Shown piece by piece: positions 11,125 to 19,418 of a stretch of 27,773 bases of DNA (its first letter is position 1; each line of letters begins with the position of its first letter). The stretch is taken from IMG/VR virus record IMGVR_UViG_2531839178_000008, positions 1-27,773 of that record. One strand, written 5' to 3'. Source of the DNA: a virus (lineage: Duplodnaviria > Heunggongvirae > Uroviricota > Caudoviricetes). Under the pieces are notes generated by a model. It saw only the letters and a list, made by a program, of their open reading frames with translations. It was not told the DNA's origin and did no database searches. Made by a program: the position numbers and the translations under genes.

Positions 11125-11232
11125 ATGAAATCAAAAATCAAATCGCTACTGGTCGCTGGTTATAACCACGGCTGGTTAAGTATTTCGTTTGTCGATTTCT
11201 GGTTTAAAAATCTCAATCTGAGGGAATCATGA
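11125..11232 (+). CDS. small hydrophobic ORF (35 aa) coupled to the primase-helicase start
   Basis: ATG 11125 four nt after the upstream stop; stop TGA overlaps the primase-helicase ATG; MKSKIKSLLVAGYNHGWLSISFVDFWFKNLNLRES. Confidence 0.3.
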   Translation: MKSKIKSLLVAGYNHGWLSISFVDFWFKNLNLRES

Positions 11233-14135
11233 GGCCAAGTGAACTTAGCGACCTGCTTTGGGCGCAGGTTGACAGGGTGGCTCCGCACCTGTTGCCAAAT
11301 GGCAAGAAAGAGGGGCATGAGTGGGTTGCCGGTAACGTCAACGGTGACAAGGGAAACAGCCTTAAGGTCAACCTTAGCGGCAAGAAAAAATGGGCTGATT
11401 TCGCTGAGGGAGACGGCGGTGACATGCTTGATTTGTGGATGGCATGTCGTGGAATTAACCTGCATCAGGCTATGCAGGAAGCGAAAGCATTTCTCGGTAT
11501 CAAGGATGACGATCACCATTTCGATGCCAAACGTGAGAAGAAATTCTCCAGACCTGATCGCAAGAAAATCGCCCACTACGTTACCAGAACAGAATCCCAT
11601 CTTGAGTACCTGCAATCGCGTGGCATATCGCCAGAAGTCGTAAAGCGCTACGAGGTTGTCAGCGGCAAGGTGTGGAATGGAGAACGAGAACTGGATGCTC
11701 TGGTGCTTCCGTACAAACGCGATGGTGAGTTGTTGCAGGTCAAGCGAATCAGCACTGAGCGCCCGGACGGGAAGAAAGTCATTATGGCAGAAGGTGATTG
11801 CGAACCTTGCCTGTTCGGATGGCAGGCTCTGGACGCTGGCGTGAGGGCGGTTGTGCTTTGCGAAGGCGAAATTGATTGTATGAGCTATGCGCAATACGGC
11901 ATCTCGGCGTTATCCGTGCCGTTTGGTGGCGGGAAAGGCGCTAAGCAACAGTGGATTGAGTTTGAGTATCACAACCTCGACAGGTTTGAGGAAATATTCA
12001 TCTCGATGGACGTTGATGATGTTGGTCGTGAAGCCGCAAGGGAAATCGCAAGCCGACTCGGTGAACATCGTTGCCGTCTTGTTACTCTGCCGTACAAAGA
12101 CATCAACGAATGCCTGATGAACGGTGTTACCGAGGATGAAATCTGGCAGTACATCGGCACGGCATCCTACTTTGATCCTGAAGAACTCTACAGCGCGCGA
12201 GAGTTTTACCAGGACACTATCAACGCTTTCTACAGCAAGCAGCAGTATCTGTTTAATCCACCGTGGGAATCTCTGGCAGATAAATTCCAGTTCCGTGAGG
12301 CCGAGTTGACGCTGGTCAATGGTGTGAACGGTCACGGAAAGGCATGCCCACTGAATGAGCCTATTCTTTTAGCTGATGGGACATGGACTACTCACGGGAA
12401 TGTAAAAATTGGCGATCAGGTGGCGTCAGTAGACGGCAATCCGTCAACTGTCACTGGGATATTCCCGCAGGGTGTTAGAGATGTTTACCGAGTCACATTT
12501 GAAGATGGTCGTTATGTTGATTGCGCAGGCGATCACCTATGGGAGGTCACTAGTCGTGGATTCACGAAAGGCGAGAAACGCCGCGTGATAGATACCTTCG
12601 GGTTGAAGCGGTTGAGTGAAACGAAGAGGCACAAAAATGGCGTTAGGATTCCTGAAATAACTGGTGACTTTGGCGACCACTCAGAGCCATTAGCATGGGT
12701 TATCGGCTCCCTTCTCGGGGATGGTAGTCTTAGCAATGGGAGCGTGAAGTTTTCAAACGTCGAGCCATACATGATCGAGCGTATGAAGGCTGAACTGCCT
12801 GATTACAACTTCTCTGGAGATGGTAAGGACTGGCTGATATCAACGGCGCGTGGTCAGGTAAATCCACTCATGGAGACCCTGCGAGGTTATGGACTAATGG
12901 GGTGCACAGCAAAAAACAAATTCATCCCTCGTGTGTTTTTTTCCGCAAATAAATCAACGCGTATAGGCATGCTGTGTGGTCTGCTTGAAACGGATGGGTA
13001 TGTCGAGAAGGATGGAACGCTTGTTTTTTCCTCAGCAAGTGAAGAACTGCGCAATGGGGTTGTTCAACTGGTTAACTCACTCGGCGGGTCATGCCGGACG
13101 CGAGTTAAAACTGGCGTGACATACACATACAAGGACGATAAGCGGCATGGGATGGATTCATACGAGGCAAGAATCAGACTGACAAGAGAAATCAGGGAGG
13201 CCATCCGTTCACCACGACTCAATGGCAGATTAACTGCGCATCGATTCGAGGGCTGTGGGGTATTCGTCAGGAATGTTGAAAAAATCGGCAATGCAGAATG
13301 CTTGTGTATTATGGTCGATCACCCTCGCCACCTGTATGTAACCAGGGGATATGTGGCGACGCATAACACCGAGGTTGTCGGGCATATGGCACTTGAGGCA
13401 ATGCGTCAGGGTGTGAAGACGTGCATCGCGTCACTTGAGCTGAAGCCTGGTATTCTCCTTAAGCGCCTTACCCGTCAGGCGACGTGCTGCAAGATTCCGC
13501 CAGTGCTGGAAATTGACTCTGCATTTAAATTTTATGACGAAAGACTTTGGGTGTTTGGCCTGACCGGAACGGCGAAAGCCGACAGGCTGATCGAAATATT
13601 CGACTACGCTCGCCGCCGATACGGGATCCAGTTATTCATCATCGACAGCCTGATGAAATGTGGCATAGGCGACGATGACTATAACGGGCAGAAGGCGTTT
13701 GTTGACTCGATTTGCGACTTCAAAAACAAAACAAACTCCCACGTCATTCTCGTTACTCACTCGCGAAAAGGAGACAGCGAAGAAAAACCAACCGGGAAAA
13801 TGGACGTAAAAGGCTCTGGAGCGATAACAGACCTGACAGACAACCTTTTCATCATCTGGCGTAACAAGGCTCGCGAGAGAGCGTTACAGAGAGTTCAGAG
13901 TGGTGAAAAGATGTCAGAGAAGGACGAACAGCTACTGGCATCTCCGGCATCTGTTTTAATGCTTGAAAAACAACGTAACGGCGAAGGTTGGGAAGGTGGT
14001 GTCCCGTTGTTCCTTGACGAGCAATCGCACCAGTTCCTGCAACTTGAATCAGGATCGCCATATAGCTACATCGCCAATATGCCGAAATCGGAATATGACG
14101 AGGCGTGGCGACAGGAAAACGTGACGGAGTATTAA
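11229..14135 (+). CDS. primase-helicase (Toprim primase plus gp4/DnaB-like SF4 helicase) containing an intein
   Basis: Toprim motif (VVLCEGEIDCMSYA), P-loop GVNGHGKA interrupted, Walker B-like IQLFIIDSLMK after the insert; 968-aa ORF with GAGGG ribosome-binding site. Confidence 0.85.
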   Translation: MRPSELSDLLWAQVDRVAPHLLPNGKKEGHEWVAGNVNGDKGNSLKVNLSGKKKWADFAEGDGGDMLDLWMACRGINLHQAMQEAKAFLGIKDDDHHFDAKREKKFSRPDRKKIAHYVTRTESHLEYLQSRGISPEVVKRYEVVSGKVWNGERELDALVLPYKRDGELLQVKRISTERPDGKKVIMAEGDCEPCLFGWQALDAGVRAVVLCEGEIDCMSYAQYGISALSVPFGGGKGAKQQWIEFEYHNLDRFEEIFISMDVDDVGREAAREIASRLGEHRCRLVTLPYKDINECLMNGVTEDEIWQYIGTASYFDPEELYSAREFYQDTINAFYSKQQYLFNPPWESLADKFQFREAELTLVNGVNGHGKACPLNEPILLADGTWTTHGNVKIGDQVASVDGNPSTVTGIFPQGVRDVYRVTFEDGRYVDCAGDHLWEVTSRGFTKGEKRRVIDTFGLKRLSETKRHKNGVRIPEITGDFGDHSEPLAWVIGSLLGDGSLSNGSVKFSNVEPYMIERMKAELPDYNFSGDGKDWLISTARGQVNPLMETLRGYGLMGCTAKNKFIPRVFFSANKSTRIGMLCGLLETDGYVEKDGTLVFSSASEELRNGVVQLVNSLGGSCRTRVKTGVTYTYKDDKRHGMDSYEARIRLTREIREAIRSPRLNGRLTAHRFEGCGVFVRNVEKIGNAECLCIMVDHPRHLYVTRGYVATHNTEVVGHMALEAMRQGVKTCIASLELKPGILLKRLTRQATCCKIPPVLEIDSAFKFYDERLWVFGLTGTAKADRLIEIFDYARRRYGIQLFIIDSLMKCGIGDDDYNGQKAFVDSICDFKNKTNSHVILVTHSRKGDSEEKPTGKMDVKGSGAITDLTDNLFIIWRNKARERALQRVQSGEKMSEKDEQLLASPASVLMLEKQRNGEGWEGGVPLFLDEQSHQFLQLESGSPYSYIANMPKSEYDEAWRQENVTEY
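12345..13367 (+). mobile_element. intein (341 aa) with a LAGLIDADG homing-endonuclease domain, inserted at the helicase P-loop
   Basis: Starts at Cys (CPLNEPILLADG...IGDQV...DG, block A), block B His (AGDHLWEV), two LAGLIDADG motifs (WVIGSLLGDGSL and IGMLCGLLETDGYV), blocks F/G (CLCIMVDHPRHLYV...GYVATHN) ending in His-Asn, followed by Thr as +1. Confidence 0.8.
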
Positions 14136-14213: not shown

Positions 14214-14488
14214 ACGATAGCTACCGACAGTTTGAAAACTGGTGGTCAAAAGACAAAAGCCAGTTCACAGGAGACGATGAATTAAAAGAGTTTGCCTGGG
14301 TGATATGGCAGGCATCGCGAGCAGCTATTGAACTGGATATCGACTGGCCCGAATCGAATGACGACTTTTGGAAAGATGGTGAAGAAGGTGCTTATGCGAT
14401 GGGTTATGAGGATGGGCGTGACAAAACGGTAATTGCAGTAATGAAAGCTATCAGAGCCGCTGGAATTAAAGAGAAGAATTTTCGATGA
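14210..14488 (+). CDS. hypothetical nin-region protein
   Basis: GTG at 14210 with GGGAGAGGG upstream preferred over the listed TTG; acidic Trp-rich product; stop overlaps the NinB start. Confidence 0.45.
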   Translation: MNDSYRQFENWWSKDKSQFTGDDELKEFAWVIWQASRAAIELDIDWPESNDDFWKDGEEGAYAMGYEDGRDKTVIAVMKAIRAAGIKEKNFR

Positions 14489-14895
14489 AGCAAACAATCT
14501 TCCTCCGAACTAAGCAACAACAGCAAGCCGCAATAAATGCCATCCTCTCAACTCCTCTCGATAAAGACAAGCCAGTCACCATCCGCATTACTGACTACAA
14601 GCGAAATCTTGACCAGAACGCAAAATTTCACGCGATGCTGGCGGATATCGCTCGTCAGGTTCAATGGTGCGGCAAATGGTTAAAACCGGAACAATGGAAG
14701 GTTTTGTTGATCAGCGGTCATGCAGTGGCAACAAAACAGGAAGCTGATGTTTTGCCCGGGCTTGAAGGCGAATACGTCAACATTCGCGAAAGCAGCGCGC
14801 AGATGAGTGTGAAGCGTATGGCAAGTCTGATTGAGTACACGACAGCATGGGCTATTGGTCAGGGTGTCAGATTTACCGACAGGAGGTACGAATGA
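14485..14895 (+). CDS. ninB: NinB (Orf-family recombination mediator)
   Basis: Conserved NinB pattern (..[27 protein letters not shown]..) and position after the replication genes. Confidence 0.8.
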
Positions 14896-15068
14896 GACGA
14901 CAGCGACGAAGTATCACCGACATCATCTGCGAAAACTGCAAATACCTTCCAACGAAACGCTCCAGAAATAAATGCAAGCCAATCCCAAAAGAATCTGACG
15001 TAAAAACCTTCAACTACACGGCTCACCTGTGGGATATCCGGTGGCTAAGACATCGTGCGAGGAAATGA
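14892..15068 (+). CDS. ninE: NinE-like small protein
   Basis: ATG 14892 overlapping the NinB stop with AGGAGG upstream; [58 protein letters not shown] resembles lambda NinE as recalled. Confidence 0.5.
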
Positions 15069-15109
15069 CTATTTATCCGGTGCGCCGCCAGAATGACGGC
15101 GCGGTGTGG

Positions 15110-15418
15110 TTAAACGAAGCGGATCTGGAGTTTTTTTCCAGTAGCGCGGGCGAATTTTTTTAGGGTGGCAAATGATGGGCCGCTGATACCTGATGCGAGA
15201 TTACTTTCCATTCTGGTGATCGCGGTCGCTTTTGTTCCCATTCGCTCGGCAACTTCAGCCTGAGTTAAGCCAGCTTCTTTGCGTGCTGCCAGCATTTCAT
15301 CAAGCAGTGCGAATTCGTCAGCGATAGCGTCGTATTCTGCTTTAAAAGCCGGGTCTTCCATCCATTTGGCTGCCATTTCGTCGTGTGTCATGGTGGGGAG
15401 AGTGCGTTTACCAGTCAT
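15110..15418 (-). CDS. HigA-family antitoxin (XRE-type HTH)
   Basis: ATG 15418 with AAGGAGG 6 nt upstream; HTH segment AGLTQAEVAERMGTKATAITRMESNLASG; overlaps the toxin 3' end by 11 nt. Confidence 0.8.
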   Translation of the reverse strand: MTGKRTLPTMTHDEMAAKWMEDPAFKAEYDAIADEFALLDEMLAARKEAGLTQAEVAERMGTKATAITRMESNLASGISGPSFATLKKFARATGKKLQIRFV

Positions 15419-15737
15419 GCTTAACCTCCTTCATTCTGGTTTCAGCTTTCTTGCGTTCGGCTGGCGGTGTTTTCTGCGTTTTCTTTACAAAACTATGCAG
15501 CATGATGATGCGTTTCCCTGTCAGAGTGCAGTAAAAAACACGCGCGATCCCATCGTTGCCTTTAATTCTGAGTTCGAAAAGCCCGTCACCAAAGGCGCTG
15601 GTGTGAGGTTCTCCGAGATTGCTGCCATATATCTTCATACGTTCAACGAGATGTTGGTATCGGGCACGCATACTCAATGGAAGCCGATCGACTTCCAGCC
15701 TTACATCTTCACTGTAGTATTCGATAGTGTAGTTCAT
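15408..15737 (-). CDS. Gp49-like / HigB-family (RelE/ParE superfamily) toxin
   Basis: MNYTIEYYSEDVRLEVDRLP...GDGLFELRIKGNDGIARVFYCTL...IIMLHSFVKKTQKTPPAERKKAE matches the addiction-module killer pattern; toxin precedes antitoxin. Start could also be the ATG at 15749. Confidence 0.8.
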   Translation of the reverse strand: MNYTIEYYSEDVRLEVDRLPLSMRARYQHLVERMKIYGSNLGEPHTSAFGDGLFELRIKGNDGIARVFYCTLTGKRIIMLHSFVKKTQKTPPAERKKAETRMKEVKHDW

Positions 15738-15872
15738 AGGTATCAACATAACAAAATCGTTATATGCATTCAAGGCCTGTAGTTGACGACAACACATATC
15801 CGGGGCTATATTCCTCACGCGCCAGCAAAATCTGGCGTCGGGATTGGAACCCCGGATATCGAAACGGTGCAT

Positions 15873-15892
15873 ACCGCGCTGGCGGTTTTTTT
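15873..15892 (+). terminator. weak intrinsic terminator in the nin region
   Basis: ACCGC-GCUG-GCGGU followed by T7 on the + strand. Confidence 0.35.
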
Positions 15893-16055
15893 ATGCGCTA
15901 AGCACAGTCACATTCGCGATTTATGGCGGGCTGTGTGGGGGCACCGAAAGGTGCGCCGGATGTTTCGACCGGTAGTTCCAACCCTGCACAGTTCGCCACC
16001 CGATGATTGGAACCTGAAGGTGGTGAGGTAAAAATTATCGAAACGCGAGGTCGTT

Positions 16056-16742
16056 ATGACTGTTCAAGTTGCTGTCAAAAACCTTTCCCCTGTCACTTAT
16101 AACCAGATTCCTGTAATCACAACTGAGTTACTCGCCCGCCTTTACGGAACAGAAGCAATCCGTATACAGCAGAATCACCATGAAAATAAATCTCGATTTA
16201 TTGAGGGAAAACACTTCTTTAAAGCTGTTGGTGATGAGCTCAAAAATTTGCGACTAGTTTTAAACGAGTCGCAAAATGAGGTGAAAATTTCTCCAAAAAC
16301 CCGCTCCCTCATCCTCTGGACAGAACGCGGCGCAGCTCGTCACGCGAAGATGCTCGAAACCGATCAGGCATGGGACGTGTTCGAAAAACTGGAAGACTGC
16401 TATTTCAGCCAGACTTCGAAAAGCGCAGGTCATCACGAGAAGAAAACCAGCGAGCTTTCTGCAAAAGATGCAAACAGTCTGGTATGGTTGTGGGATTATG
16501 CCAACCGCTCACAGGTATTATTCCGCGAACTGTATCCGGCGCTAAGACAAATTCAGTCTAACTATTCCGGCAGATGCCACGACTACGGTCATGAGTTCTC
16601 GTATGTTATCGGAATGGCGAGAGACGTTTTAATCAATCACACACGAGATGTTGATATTAATGAGCCAGACGGACCAACGAATCTTTCTGCATGGGTAAGA
16701 CTTAAGAACAAAGAATTACCTCCTTCACTACATCACTACTGA
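16056..16742 (+). CDS. ORF6N-domain protein (antirepressor-like)
   Basis: N-terminal ..[35 protein letters not shown].. (NKxRFxEGKH signature); GAGG ribosome-binding site. Confidence 0.65.
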
Positions 16743-16784: not shown

Positions 16785-16816
16785 TTGCTGAATTTTCAAT
16801 ATGAGAGGACATGACA

Positions 16817-17071
16817 ATGAACGAGCTGATAAATAGCAACGCCATTAAAATGACCAGCATTGAAATCGCTGAGTTGGTGGGTAAGCGTCATGACAATGTG
16901 AAACGTACCATCGAAACGCTGGTTAAAAGTGGAGTTATCCGGCTTCCTCAAATTGAGGTTTCCGAAAGAATCAATAACTTAGGGTTCAATGTTCAGTACG
17001 AGCATTACGTCTTCGAAGGCGAACAAGGTAAGCGCGACAGCATTATTGTCGTTGAAGGAGGTGTTGCATGA
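16817..17071 (+). CDS. Rha-like regulatory protein (pRha domain)
   Basis: ..MTSIEIAELVGKRHDNVKRTIETL.. matches the Rha N-terminal signature; ATG 16817 has better ribosome-binding-site spacing than 16811; stop overlaps the next start. Confidence 0.55.
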   Translation: MNELINSNAIKMTSIEIAELVGKRHDNVKRTIETLVKSGVIRLPQIEVSERINNLGFNVQYEHYVFEGEQGKRDSIIVVEGGVA

Positions 17072-18197: not shown

Positions 18198-18382
18198 ACG
18201 CCACAATTCAAACGATACCAGAGCTTCTTATCCAGACACGAGGCAATCAGACCGAAGTGGCGAGGATGCTTTCCTGCGCAAGAGGAACAGTGCTCAAGTA
18301 CAACCGAGACAGCAAAGGCGAGCGTCACGTAATAGTTAACGGCGTCCTGATGGTCAAACAGGGCAAGAGGGGAAGACGATGA
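18194..18382 (+). CDS. ninH: NinH
   Basis: ..TIPELLIQTRGNQTEVARMLSCARGTVLKY..VIVNGVLMV.. matches lambda NinH as recalled; position immediately before Q. Confidence 0.75.
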   Translation: MNATIQTIPELLIQTRGNQTEVARMLSCARGTVLKYNRDSKGERHVIVNGVLMVKQGKRGRR

Positions 18383-19002
18383 GACTCGAAAGCGTAGCTA
18401 AATTTCATTCGCCAAAAAGCCCGATGATGAGCGACTCACCACGGGCTACGGCTTCTGACTCTCTTTCCGGTACTGATGTGATGGCTGCTATGGGGATGGC
18501 GCAATCACAAGCCGGATTCGGAATGGCTGCATTTTGCGGTAAGCATGAACTCAGCCAGAACGACAAACAAAAGGCTATCAACTATCTGATGCAATTTGCA
18601 CACAAGGTATCGGGGAAATACCGTGGTGTGGCAAAGCTCGAAGGAAATACTAAGGCAAAGGTACTGCAAGTGCTCGCAACATTCGCTTATGCGGATTATT
18701 GCCGTAGTGCCGCGACGCCGGGCGCAAGATGCAGAGATTGCCACGGAACAGGTCTGGCAGTTGATATAGCCAAAACAGAGCAGTGGGGGAGAGTTGTCGA
18801 GAAAGAGTGCGGAAGATGCAAAGGTGTCGGCTATTCAAGGATGCCAGCAAGTGCAGCATATCGCGCTGTAACGATGCTAATCCCAAACCTCACCCAACCC
18901 ACATGGTCACGCACTGTTAAGCCGCTGTATGACGCTCTGGTGGTGCAATGCCACAAAGAAGAGTCAATCGCAGACAACATTTTGAATGCGGTCACACGTT
19001 AG
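18379..19002 (+). CDS. Q: late-gene antiterminator Q (lambda type)
   Basis: 207-aa product beginning MRLESVAKFHSPKSPMMSDSPRATASD with a CRDCHGTG...CGRCKG zinc motif, essentially the lambda Q sequence as recalled. Confidence 0.9.
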   Translation: MRLESVAKFHSPKSPMMSDSPRATASDSLSGTDVMAAMGMAQSQAGFGMAAFCGKHELSQNDKQKAINYLMQFAHKVSGKYRGVAKLEGNTKAKVLQVLATFAYADYCRSAATPGARCRDCHGTGLAVDIAKTEQWGRVVEKECGRCKGVGYSRMPASAAYRAVTMLIPNLTQPTWSRTVKPLYDALVVQCHKEESIADNILNAVTR

Positions 19003-19262: not shown

Positions 19263-19337
19263 GGGTCAGTCGTATAAAGGTCATTACGGAAGGCTGTTAA
19301 CCTTCTTATCGTGGTTCGAGTCCACGCTGTCCCGCCA
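19263..19337 (+). tRNA. tRNA-like gene, anticodon GUU (Asn-like), atypical
   Basis: Canonical T arm CGTGG-TTCGAGT-CCACG, anticodon arm GAAGG-CTGTTAA-CCTTC, encoded CCA; but acceptor stem has a U-U mismatch and the D arm is only 3 bp. Confidence 0.4.
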
Positions 19338-19342
19338 AACAT

Positions 19343-19418
19343 GCTGGTTTAGCTCCAATGGTAGAGCAGTCGCCTTGTAAGCGAATGGGTAGCGGTTCAA
19401 GTCCGTTAACCAGCACCA
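19343..19418 (+). tRNA. tRNA, anticodon UGU (Thr)
   Basis: Manual fold: acceptor GCTGGTT/AACCAGC, D arm GCTC-CAATGGTA-GAGC, anticodon loop CTTGTAA, variable TGGGT, T arm AGCGG-TTCAAGT-CCGTT, discriminator A, encoded CCA; 76 nt. Confidence 0.65.

Follow-up and report, generated by a model that had tools for sequence, protein, structure and literature searches.

Within the window analyzed here (the whole 27,773-nt stretch, positions 1 to 27,773 of IMG/VR record IMGVR_UViG_2531839178_000008, a virus of the Caudoviricetes), two overlapping open reading frames (ORFs) on the minus strand of a lambdoid prophage (15110..15737) very probably form a type II toxin-antitoxin cassette that is self-contained and falls in the Gp49 (PF05973) branch of the RelE/ParE superfamily, and this explanation, including the mode of action proposed below, was the best of those considered. 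Based on sequence comparison, the pair is grouped with gp49/gp48 of phage N15 (Tad-Ata type), HigBA of Streptococcus pneumoniae and HigB1 of Mycobacterium tuberculosis, and alignment identifies it as a moron inserted in antisense orientation between ninE and the IsrK/C4-ant module of the prophage. The locus is an ordinary, intact member of a well-described family, already labelled by annotation pipelines; the only addition of some interest, and a mildly new one, is the family-wide layout of promoter, operator and putatively leaderless toxin start. The elements of the cassette are as follows.

15408..15737, minus strand: toxin gene, 109 aa, N-terminus MNYTIEYY, sequence MNYTIEYY…KKTQKTPPAERKKAETRMKEVKHDW
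15110..15418, minus strand: antitoxin gene, 102 aa; N-terminal ~40 residues a putative toxin-binding segment, C-terminal XRE-type helix-turn-helix (HTH) at residues 44-98
15408..15418, minus strand: overlap of toxin stop and antitoxin start, 11 nt, ATGACTGGTAA
15768..15773, minus strand: proposed -35 element TTGAAT, at a fixed offset; homology among unrelated contexts begins here
15745..15750, minus strand: proposed -10 element TATGTT, overlapping the right arm of the palindrome and ending 7 nt before the toxin ATG (15737)
15748..15763, no strand assigned: operator-like palindrome, ATAACAAAATCGTTAT (minus-strand reading ATAACGATTTTGTTAT); family consensus TAACA-N4-TGTTA
15425..15431, minus strand: Shine-Dalgarno (SD) sequence AAGGAGG of the antitoxin, 6 nt before its ATG, encoded in the conserved M-K-E-V-K codons of the toxin C-terminus
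15082..15102, minus strand: GC-rich hairpin with a 9-bp stem after the antitoxin stop (RNA fold centroid -16.6 kcal/mol, z -2.4)
15082..~15800, minus strand: mobile cassette (promoter/operator, toxin, antitoxin, 3' hairpin), ~0.72 kb, by comparison with cassette-free phages

Gene structure and family assignment

The toxin-first order with an 11-nt overlap, claimed by an earlier reading of the sequence alone (hereafter the sequence-only reading), was read directly from the sequence. The same overlap was found in enterobacterial relatives, while overlaps across the family mostly measured 4-17 nt, and the arrangement of a toxin-first, co-oriented, overlapping or closely spaced gene pair, with the antitoxin kept as partner, was found in 78 relatives. 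The toxin ORF, taken mechanically, reaches up to 15872. The real start was placed at 15737 because phrog_2523 aligns toxin residues 1-109 to profile positions 1-108 of 108, because RefSeq gives exactly these coordinates in Escherichia coli VL40 and FDAARGOS_943, and because homology between cassettes in unrelated flanks ends ~60 nt upstream of this ATG. The 154-aa extension to 15872 was thus rejected as a mechanical ORF, given that family profiles and RefSeq start at 15737 and that cassette homology ends at ~15800; a 167-aa plus-strand ORF (15279..15782) was likewise discarded as a shadow, or mechanical, ORF. In the two E. coli strains mentioned, RefSeq holds proteins identical to the toxin (WP_024258354.1, 'type II toxin-antitoxin system RelE/ParE family toxin') and to the antitoxin (WP_000147081.1, 'helix-turn-helix domain-containing protein').

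In the profile search that the sequence-only reading had proposed as a check, the toxin scored 90.5 bits against Gp49 (PF05973), far in excess of the gathering score of 23.9 (E 7.4e-26), with the match covering positions 3-90 of the 90 in the profile; no other Pfam family was matched at E <= 0.01, and all 120 listed toxin homologues carried PF05973. The antitoxin matched HTH_3 at residues 44-98 (E 3.4e-11), so that the assignment of a Gp49 toxin with an XRE-type HTH partner was borne out, as was the KKTQKTP motif, located at toxin residues 85-91. The label 'HigB/HigA-like' fared less well and is justified only if taken as the loose name given to Gp49-type pairs: both proteins match S. pneumoniae HigBA in sequence, and the predicted toxin fold matches S. 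pneumoniae HigB and M. tuberculosis HigB1, but the toxin matched neither the canonical HigB families PF05015/PF09907 nor PF06296 in the Pfam scan, and the NCBIfam scan of both proteins returned only sub-threshold matches, with no HigA-family model listed for the antitoxin.

Toxin fold and candidate catalytic residues

Among sequences in the PDB, the toxin matched S. pneumoniae HigB (6AF3) at E 1.5e-5; a profile of 30 toxin sequences improved this match to E 1.4e-9 and added M. tuberculosis HigB1 (7NBU, 7AWK) at about 1e-4. The AlphaFold2 (AF2) model of the toxin, built with 29 homologues, reached a mean predicted local distance difference test score (pLDDT) of 90.4 and a predicted template modelling (TM) score of 0.84. 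Its elements (strand 4-7, helices 10-17 and 21-37, four strands at 46-85, and helix 92-108) agree with the RelE/ParE (BECR) fold, which combines N-terminal helices with a four-stranded antiparallel sheet and, in this branch, a long C-terminal helix. The top Foldseek matches were S. pneumoniae HigB (6AF4, TM 0.76) and HigB1 (7NBU, TM 0.70), followed by weaker matches to RelE, HigB2 (TM 0.58), YoeB, YafQ and ParE.

The residues K58, R61, E66, R68, N73, R77, F93, K95, Q98 and K99 of HigB1 are described as catalytic or mRNA-contacting (PMC9098466); the numbering of the HigB1 chain is offset by +6 with respect to the native one, as verified on K58, R61, E66, R68, N73, R77, F93, K95A, Q98 and K99. 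In the profile alignment, E66/R68/R77/F93/K95/Q98/K99 correspond to E55/R57/R66/F83/K85/Q88/K89 of the toxin, which are its candidate catalytic residues; E55, R57, R66, F83, K85 and K89 were invariant in 29 homologues (61-94% identity) and Q88 was kept in most of them. The shared fold and the retained catalytic residues support ribosome-dependent cleavage of mRNA in the A site, and degradation of mRNA in a ribosome-dependent manner is the activity given for the gp49 family, together with the toxin-then-antitoxin order (PMC11980606, Table 1). Prediction of the toxin as a ribosome-dependent mRNase is well supported by homology. Poisoning of gyrase in the manner of ParE was rejected, since the nearest matches in sequence and structure were the mRNases HigB and HigB1 and the catalytic residues were kept.

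Antitoxin and its contact with the toxin

The best PDB match of the antitoxin was the HigA chain of 6AF3 (6AF3_B, E 1e-3), so that toxin and antitoxin each match one chain of the same solved complex. The protein ends right after the HTH, at residue 102, without a C-terminal extension. A single-sequence AF2 model of it was too poor for a fold search (pLDDT 58).

Enterobacterial copies fell into two haplotypes of the toxin and antitoxin N-termini. In the first, toxin residues about 9-48 (…EDVRLEVDRLPLSMRARYQHLVERMKIYGSN…) go with AAKWMEDPAF at antitoxin residues 16-25, while in the second a toxin segment …DEVEAEILSLPETLQARYIRYTEKMRIYGAN… goes with VEKMLSNPAV; the N-terminal segments of the two proteins thus co-vary, the haplotypes being nearly identical in the HTH and in the toxin's catalytic half. 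Across 78 pairs, the highest corrected mutual information linked toxin R24 with antitoxin W19, Q28 with A16, and R24 with D22, followed by Q28-W19, E32-Y29, H29-Y29 and E32-A16 (toxin residue first). Covariation of the last toxin residues with antitoxin residues 5-10 was discarded as an artefact of the nucleotides common to both genes in the overlap. Taken together, this pattern suggests that an N-terminal helix of the antitoxin docks on toxin helix alpha2.

Proposed promoter and operator, and translation signals

Sequences upstream of the toxin were aligned first for eight and later for ten cassettes, drawn from four genera (E. coli, Salmonella, Photorhabdus and Edwardsiella). In otherwise unrelated flanks they share the block TTG-N…-ATAAC-N6-GTTAT-GTT-N7-ATG, in which the palindrome arms are invariant. 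The palindrome at 15748..15763 had been noted by the sequence-only reading as overlapping the start region; its presence was corroborated, and it is conserved across genera as a putative operator embedded in the promoter, but its place is 11-26 nt upstream of the toxin ATG, where it overlaps the -10 hexamer instead of the start codon. No other exact ATAAC-N6-GTTAT occurs in the window; when one mismatch was allowed, 3 sites were found against 0.49 expected, a count reached in 0 of 100 shuffles. The window copy is imperfect: pairing is perfect over the outer 5 bp of the arms and reaches 6 of 8 positions overall, while most relatives have ATAACA-N4-TGTTAT; at arm position 6 it carries a G where relatives mostly have A.

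The same layout was seen in the 60-70 nt upstream of the start codon of 76 further relatives from Gamma- and Betaproteobacteria and Nitrospira. The core TAACA-N4-TGTTA occupied a fixed place in 80 of 82 relatives. In 71 of 83 the palindrome began at position -25/-26 relative to the start codon, and its last two bases were the first two of a TAnnnT hexamer whose key positions are almost invariant (T 80/80, A 80/80, T 79/80; commonest forms TATTAT, TACTAT and TAATAT). A TTG stood exactly 17 nt upstream of this hexamer in 56 of 80 (per position, T 69, T 64 and G 59 of 80), and in 71 of 83 a gap of 6-7 nt separated the end of the hexamer from the ATG or GTG. Variant palindrome arms remained symmetric through compensatory changes (TTAGC/GCTAT, TTACC/GGTAT), which is what a site recognised by a dimeric HTH protein would be expected to show. 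This conservation implies that the palindrome is the putative operator of an autorepressed promoter.

Translation signals of the two genes differed throughout the relatives. The 15 nt before the toxin start showed no complementarity to the anti-SD (duplex energy about +1 kcal/mol in roughly 60 of 76, never stronger than -3.7), while the antitoxin start was preceded by AAGGAG(G/A) at 5-7 nt in nearly all of them (-4 to -14 kcal/mol). As the -10 element ends 6-7 nt upstream of the toxin, the simplest reading places the 5' end of the transcript on the toxin start codon or beside it. The toxin cistron is thus probably leaderless and weakly translated, and the antitoxin cistron well translated. In toxin-first type II modules, an excess of antitoxin has been attributed to additional antitoxin promoters or to transcript truncation (PMC7167474, a review). 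In the window, the promoter scan detected no extra antitoxin promoter, although it may have missed a weak one. About as likely to be right as wrong, in our judgement, is the wider proposal that throughout this Gp49 subfamily, whose modules number in the hundreds and occur in Gamma- and Betaproteobacteria and Nitrospira, the toxin-first order is made safe by translation and not by extra promoters, through a -10 element fused to the operator, a leaderless toxin and a strong antitoxin SD. No description of such a leaderless design for reverse-order toxin-antitoxin systems was found in the literature searched. If the proposal were true, toxin output in the prophage would be sensitive to anything that alters leaderless translation.

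Cassette limits, mobility and distribution

The pair lies between NinE and the antirepressor gene, both on the plus strand, which agrees with the position and orientation given by the sequence-only reading. The flanking features, with the RNA elements of the spacer between NinE and the antirepressor gene (ant), are listed below.

14485..14895, plus strand: NinB
14847..15068, plus strand: NinE (PF05322)
15783..15812, plus strand: promoter-like TTGACG-18-TATATT from the promoter scan (IsrK promoter), -35 at 15783..15788
15806..15858, plus strand: c4 a1b1 target element (Rfam match)
15819..15892, plus strand: IsrK small RNA (Rfam match, 72 bits)
15873..15893, plus strand: terminator (promoter/terminator scan)
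15919..16003, plus strand: C4 antisense RNA (Rfam match, 75 bits)
16056..16742, plus strand: ORF6N/P22_AR_C antirepressor

The plus-strand spacer at 15783..16003, upstream of the antirepressor gene, holds a P1/P7 immI-like RNA module, and the same IsrK/C4 module was also found in phages without the cassette. Given the -35 elements of the cassette (15768..15773) and of IsrK (15783..15788), the two promoters lie back to back.

Alignment with the empty NinE-ant junction of phage JLK-2012 supported an antisense insertion beside NinE, with an extra segment between 15066 and about 15780-15800; in phages JLK-2012, Min27 and 24B, NinE is directly joined to sequence found in the window from about 15784 on. 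The insertion proposed earlier therefore stands, but the unit is larger than the 15110-15770 given for it, extending from about 15066/15082 to about 15800. The inserted segment replaces the last three NinE codons, and NinE is two residues shorter with the cassette (…RHRARK* at 15066..15068 in the window vs …RHRARKTR* at about 2666..2675 of the JLK-2012 locus, L002). Homology extended over 15082..15800 with POCJ13 and over 15082..15763 with TUM9812, the other flanks being unrelated, and in all cassette contexts the left limit was 15082, the foot of the 3' hairpin. This hairpin was rejected as an intrinsic terminator, as it has no U-tract on either strand. The contexts in which the cassette was found are listed below.

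Shiga toxin (Stx) phages POCJ13 and 75/02: 92-93% identity; neighbours are DUF4145/hypothetical genes
PhiR5_2 and several E. coli strains: 81-84% (wider query including flanks); ahead of an IsrK-ORF6N antirepressor-NinB block
E. coli KY176: 89-90%; adjoins an orphan HigA-family gene
E. coli TUM9812 (87% nucleotide) and Salmonella (toxin 74%, protein): between DUF4222 and Rha/Ash genes
Edwardsiella prophages: toxin 89% (protein); in a region rich in other toxin-antitoxin pairs
Photorhabdus: toxin 68% (protein); adjoins sbcB, outside any prophage

The cassette was found in at least five prophage contexts, and in every one of them it was antisense to the adjoining phage genes. It was present in 31 of 5426 complete E. 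coli genomes, in all cases on the chromosome. At the protein level the family comprised 2875 clusters at E <= 1e-3, with at least 585 loci among species-representative genomes. The Edwardsiella region (L015 4927..6429; L016 258..792) additionally holds a second, different Gp49 and HTH pair, a DUF4160/DUF2442 pair and a ParE-like/ParD-like pair.

Pairwise ratios of nonsynonymous to synonymous substitution rates (dN/dS), calculated between the window copy and the six copies with estimable dS, were 0.02-0.18 for the toxin and 0.01-0.11 for the antitoxin; being far below 1 for both genes, they indicate strong purifying selection on both. In phage PhiR5_2 (L003, about 3161) and E. coli S792 (L005, about 3161), the toxin start codon is ATA instead of ATG and the antitoxin is intact, which looks like silencing of the toxin with the antitoxin kept; annotators call a truncated toxin of 76 aa in both. 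A toxin of 76 aa is also given by RefSeq in E. coli TUM9812 (L008 3027..4028), in this case due to a Rha-family gene called across the toxin 5' end, and the full ORF of 109 aa is in fact intact there.

Proposed mechanism and alternative explanations

Given its antisense position within the rightward early operon, the pair is expected to rely on its own promoter for expression in the lysogen, and during lytic growth early transcripts would cross it. In a lysogen, a weak sigma-70 promoter belonging to the cassette (TTGAAT-17-TATGTT) would drive leftward transcription without depending on the phage operons, which are repressed. The transcript would start at or within a few nt of the toxin ATG (15737), yielding a leaderless, poorly translated toxin cistron followed by an antitoxin cistron with a strong AAGGAGG, and this combination would produce an excess of antitoxin despite the toxin-first order. 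An antitoxin dimer is proposed to bind the palindrome over the -10 element and thus to autorepress the promoter, while its N-terminal segment (about residues 12-32) would neutralise the toxin by binding to helix alpha2 (21-37). If the supply of antitoxin failed, either by loss of the cassette or prophage or by transcription shut-off by an infecting phage, free toxin would enter the ribosomal A site and cleave mRNA, leading to growth arrest. Selection most likely favours the pair for keeping the cassette or prophage in place (addiction), a role reported for plasmid-borne relatives, with exclusion of other phages as a possible by-product; abortive infection or prophage stabilisation, the roles named by the sequence-only reading, are a general expectation for such modules.

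Several observations weigh against one or another part of this explanation. No minus-strand promoter was reported by the promoter scan at its threshold; the call of the cassette promoter rests on conservation because its match to consensus, 8/12, fell below that threshold. The transcription start was inferred from spacing alone. GTG is a poor leaderless start codon in E. coli, and 27 of 83 relatives start with it, while gp49 of N15 has a normal AGGAGG leader. The covariation sample of 78 related sequences is small and confounded by phylogeny. With regard to catalysis, 7 of the 10 HigB1 residues were kept, but K58, R61 and N73 are replaced by S47, G50 and D62, so that codon preference may differ from that of HigB1; an invariant H45 of the subfamily may substitute for the lost residues. 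The ATA start in PhiR5_2 and S792 indicates that the toxin can be lost without loss of the antitoxin, and PADLOC reported no defence system at the locus beyond a domain-level match. Finally, two Gp49 toxins of M. tuberculosis, HigB2 and HigB3, were non-toxic when expressed (PMC9098466).

The alternative that survived best, although we regard it as distinctly less probable than the addiction role, is that the pair mainly serves anti-phage defence (abortive infection or superinfection exclusion), the toxin being freed when an incoming phage halts transcription in the host or degrades the labile antitoxin. It is compatible with the same molecular mechanism and differs only in the selected role. 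The variable moron position in prophage early regions, always against the phage operons, is in line with it, as are the several other toxin-antitoxin pairs held at the same spot in Edwardsiella, the defence of lambdoid-prophage HigBAC against lambda-vir and Bas25 (bioRxiv 10.1101/2024.02.24.581848) and the use of Gp49 domains as effectors in the Menshen defence system (PMC12065111). Nevertheless, the cassette has no sensor, given the absence of an adjoining gene for a SecB-like chaperone and of a C-terminal extension on the 102-aa antitoxin; no PADLOC system model was matched beyond the toxin domain; the cassette is rare, as its count among complete E. coli genomes shows; and it also occurs outside prophages, beside sbcB in Photorhabdus.

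It is improbable, although not negligibly so, that the toxin is inactive or weak like HigB2 and HigB3 and that the pair amounts to a DNA-binding regulator with a passenger, or to a decaying selfish element without phenotype. The non-toxicity of these two members of the same Pfam family (PMC9098466), the loss of the toxin start (ATG to ATA) in some lineages that kept the antitoxin, and the three HigB1 activity residues that are not conserved would fit such a view. Harder to reconcile with it are the strong purifying selection on the toxin (dN/dS 0.02-0.18 in pairs with the window copy), the invariance of six of the seven mapped catalytic residues, with Q88 present in most homologues of 57-94% identity, and a module architecture tightly conserved over hundreds of genomes; in addition, the elaborate arrangement for low translation would be pointless for a harmless protein. 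That the HTH protein is instead a phage regulator of the adjacent, divergent IsrK/C4-antirepressor module, the pair forming part of the immunity circuitry, is very improbable: the two promoters do lie back to back and part of the promoter spacer moves with the cassette in several contexts, but the same pair and operator occur without an adjacent IsrK/C4/ant in TUM9812, Salmonella, Photorhabdus and dozens of beta-proteobacterial chromosomes, the only exact palindrome copy in the window is that of the cassette's own promoter, and JLK-2012 and similar phages run the IsrK/C4-ant module without the pair, so that with the operator confined to its own promoter and the pair widespread elsewhere it probably does not regulate that module.

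Other features of the window

Additional observations were made in the remainder of the window. A Toprim primase/helicase-type replication protein of 968 aa (11229..14135, plus strand) contains an apparent intein, with a Hom_end-associated Hint match at residues 379-424 that at 23.9 bits remained under Pfam's gathering score of 32.1 and, at residues 579-634, a LAGLIDADG_3 homing-endonuclease domain; RefSeq labels a protein of the same length only as 'toprim domain-containing protein'. On the minus strand, a full-length lambda cIII thermoregulator RNA element (5601..5659; RF01804, 88.5 bits) marks the leftward early operon. Tandem genes for tRNA-Asn(GTT) and tRNA-Thr(TGT) (19263..19418, plus strand) lie between a Q-like antiterminator ORF (18379..19002) and the lysis genes. 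An ORF of 86 aa (16811..17071, plus strand) matches the Rha regulator profile over its first 27 positions only and represents a truncated Rha gene; the matching locus is flagged as a pseudogene in VL40 and FDAARGOS_943.

Significance

The direct significance of the locus is small, as it adds one more prophage-borne toxin-antitoxin moron. It nonetheless offers a clean example of a 0.72-kb toxin-antitoxin cassette that moves between positions in lambdoid early regions, and such cassettes sit antisense to phage operons and would accordingly be expressed in the lysogen. The conserved layout of promoter, operator and start codon provides a testable hypothesis for how an excess of antitoxin may arise in toxin-first modules. 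Should it turn out to exclude other phages, the pair would enlarge the prophage defence repertoire by a minimal Gp49 module that lacks a sensor.

Comparison with known systems

The canonical HigBA modules (Proteus vulgaris Rts1 and E. coli K-12) and Vibrio cholerae HigBA2 share the superfamily fold, the toxin-first order and an HTH antitoxin with the present pair, but their toxins are placed elsewhere in Pfam (PF05015/PF09907 in the case of HigB, PF06296 in that of V. cholerae HigB2; PMC11980606, Table 1). Reverse-order systems differ in obtaining their antitoxin excess through extra promoters (PMC7167474), none of which was detected here. In the PADLOC search, one NsnC model was matched by toxin residues 49-99, over positions 233-283 of its 293, which lie in its C-terminal effector part. 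Menshen systems consist of NsnA (ParB-DUF262), NsnB (an ABC ATPase) and a multidomain NsnC with an N-terminal inactive PIN domain, and some NsnC proteins use a Gp49 effector (PMC12065111). A Menshen (NsnABC) system was rejected and the match ascribed to the shared toxin domain only; no NsnA- or NsnB-like gene was annotated around the same cassette in VL40 and FDAARGOS_943.

HigB1 of M. tuberculosis, the toxin of a toxin-antitoxin-chaperone (TAC) system (7NBU on the ribosome, 7AWK), resembles the present toxin in fold (TM 0.70) and in seven retained catalytic residues. The TAC system, however, needs a SecB-like chaperone and a chaperone-addiction extension of the antitoxin, neither of which is present here: the cassette holds no third gene, the next features being NinE and IsrK/C4/ant, so that it is not of the TAC/HigBAC type. 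The HigBAC of lambdoid prophages likewise differs in sensing phage through the chaperone that is absent here (bioRxiv 10.1101/2024.02.24.581848).

HigBA of S. pneumoniae (6AF3/6AF4) provided the best match in sequence and structure for both partners, and its toxin shares the long C-terminal helix and the (K/R)TQKTP motif. Yet identity in the structural alignment was only about 20%, the S. pneumoniae toxin is longer (141-aa construct), and its locus is a chromosomal one of a Gram-positive bacterium, not a prophage cassette. HigBA2 of Acinetobacter baumannii (plasmid pAB120) was likened to the pair by description: a Gp49-domain toxin comes first and an HTH antitoxin second in one transcription unit, and the module's own promoter is repressed by the antitoxin and, to a greater degree, by the complex (PMC5906591). 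It differs in being plasmid-borne; in PMC5906591, GP49-domain Tad toxins are cited as validated toxin-antitoxin modules, no leaderless arrangement is mentioned, and no data on transcription starts or leaders are given.

In the case of gp49/gp48 of phage N15, the prophage is a linear plasmid, for which plasmid stabilisation is an obvious role, whereas the present cassette sits in an integrated lambdoid prophage; moreover, gene 49 has an AGGAGG leader and its stop overlaps the start of gene 48 by 1 nt, in contrast to the toxin without SD and the overlap of 11 nt found here. The N15 pair is nevertheless phage-borne and toxin-first as well, and its gp49 is the founder of Pfam PF05973. Identity with gp49 was 46% over toxin residues 15-105, including LFELR and LHxFVKKTQKTP, and gp48 was 38% identical to the antitoxin, with the same layout of an N-terminal segment followed by an XRE-type HTH at the C-terminus.

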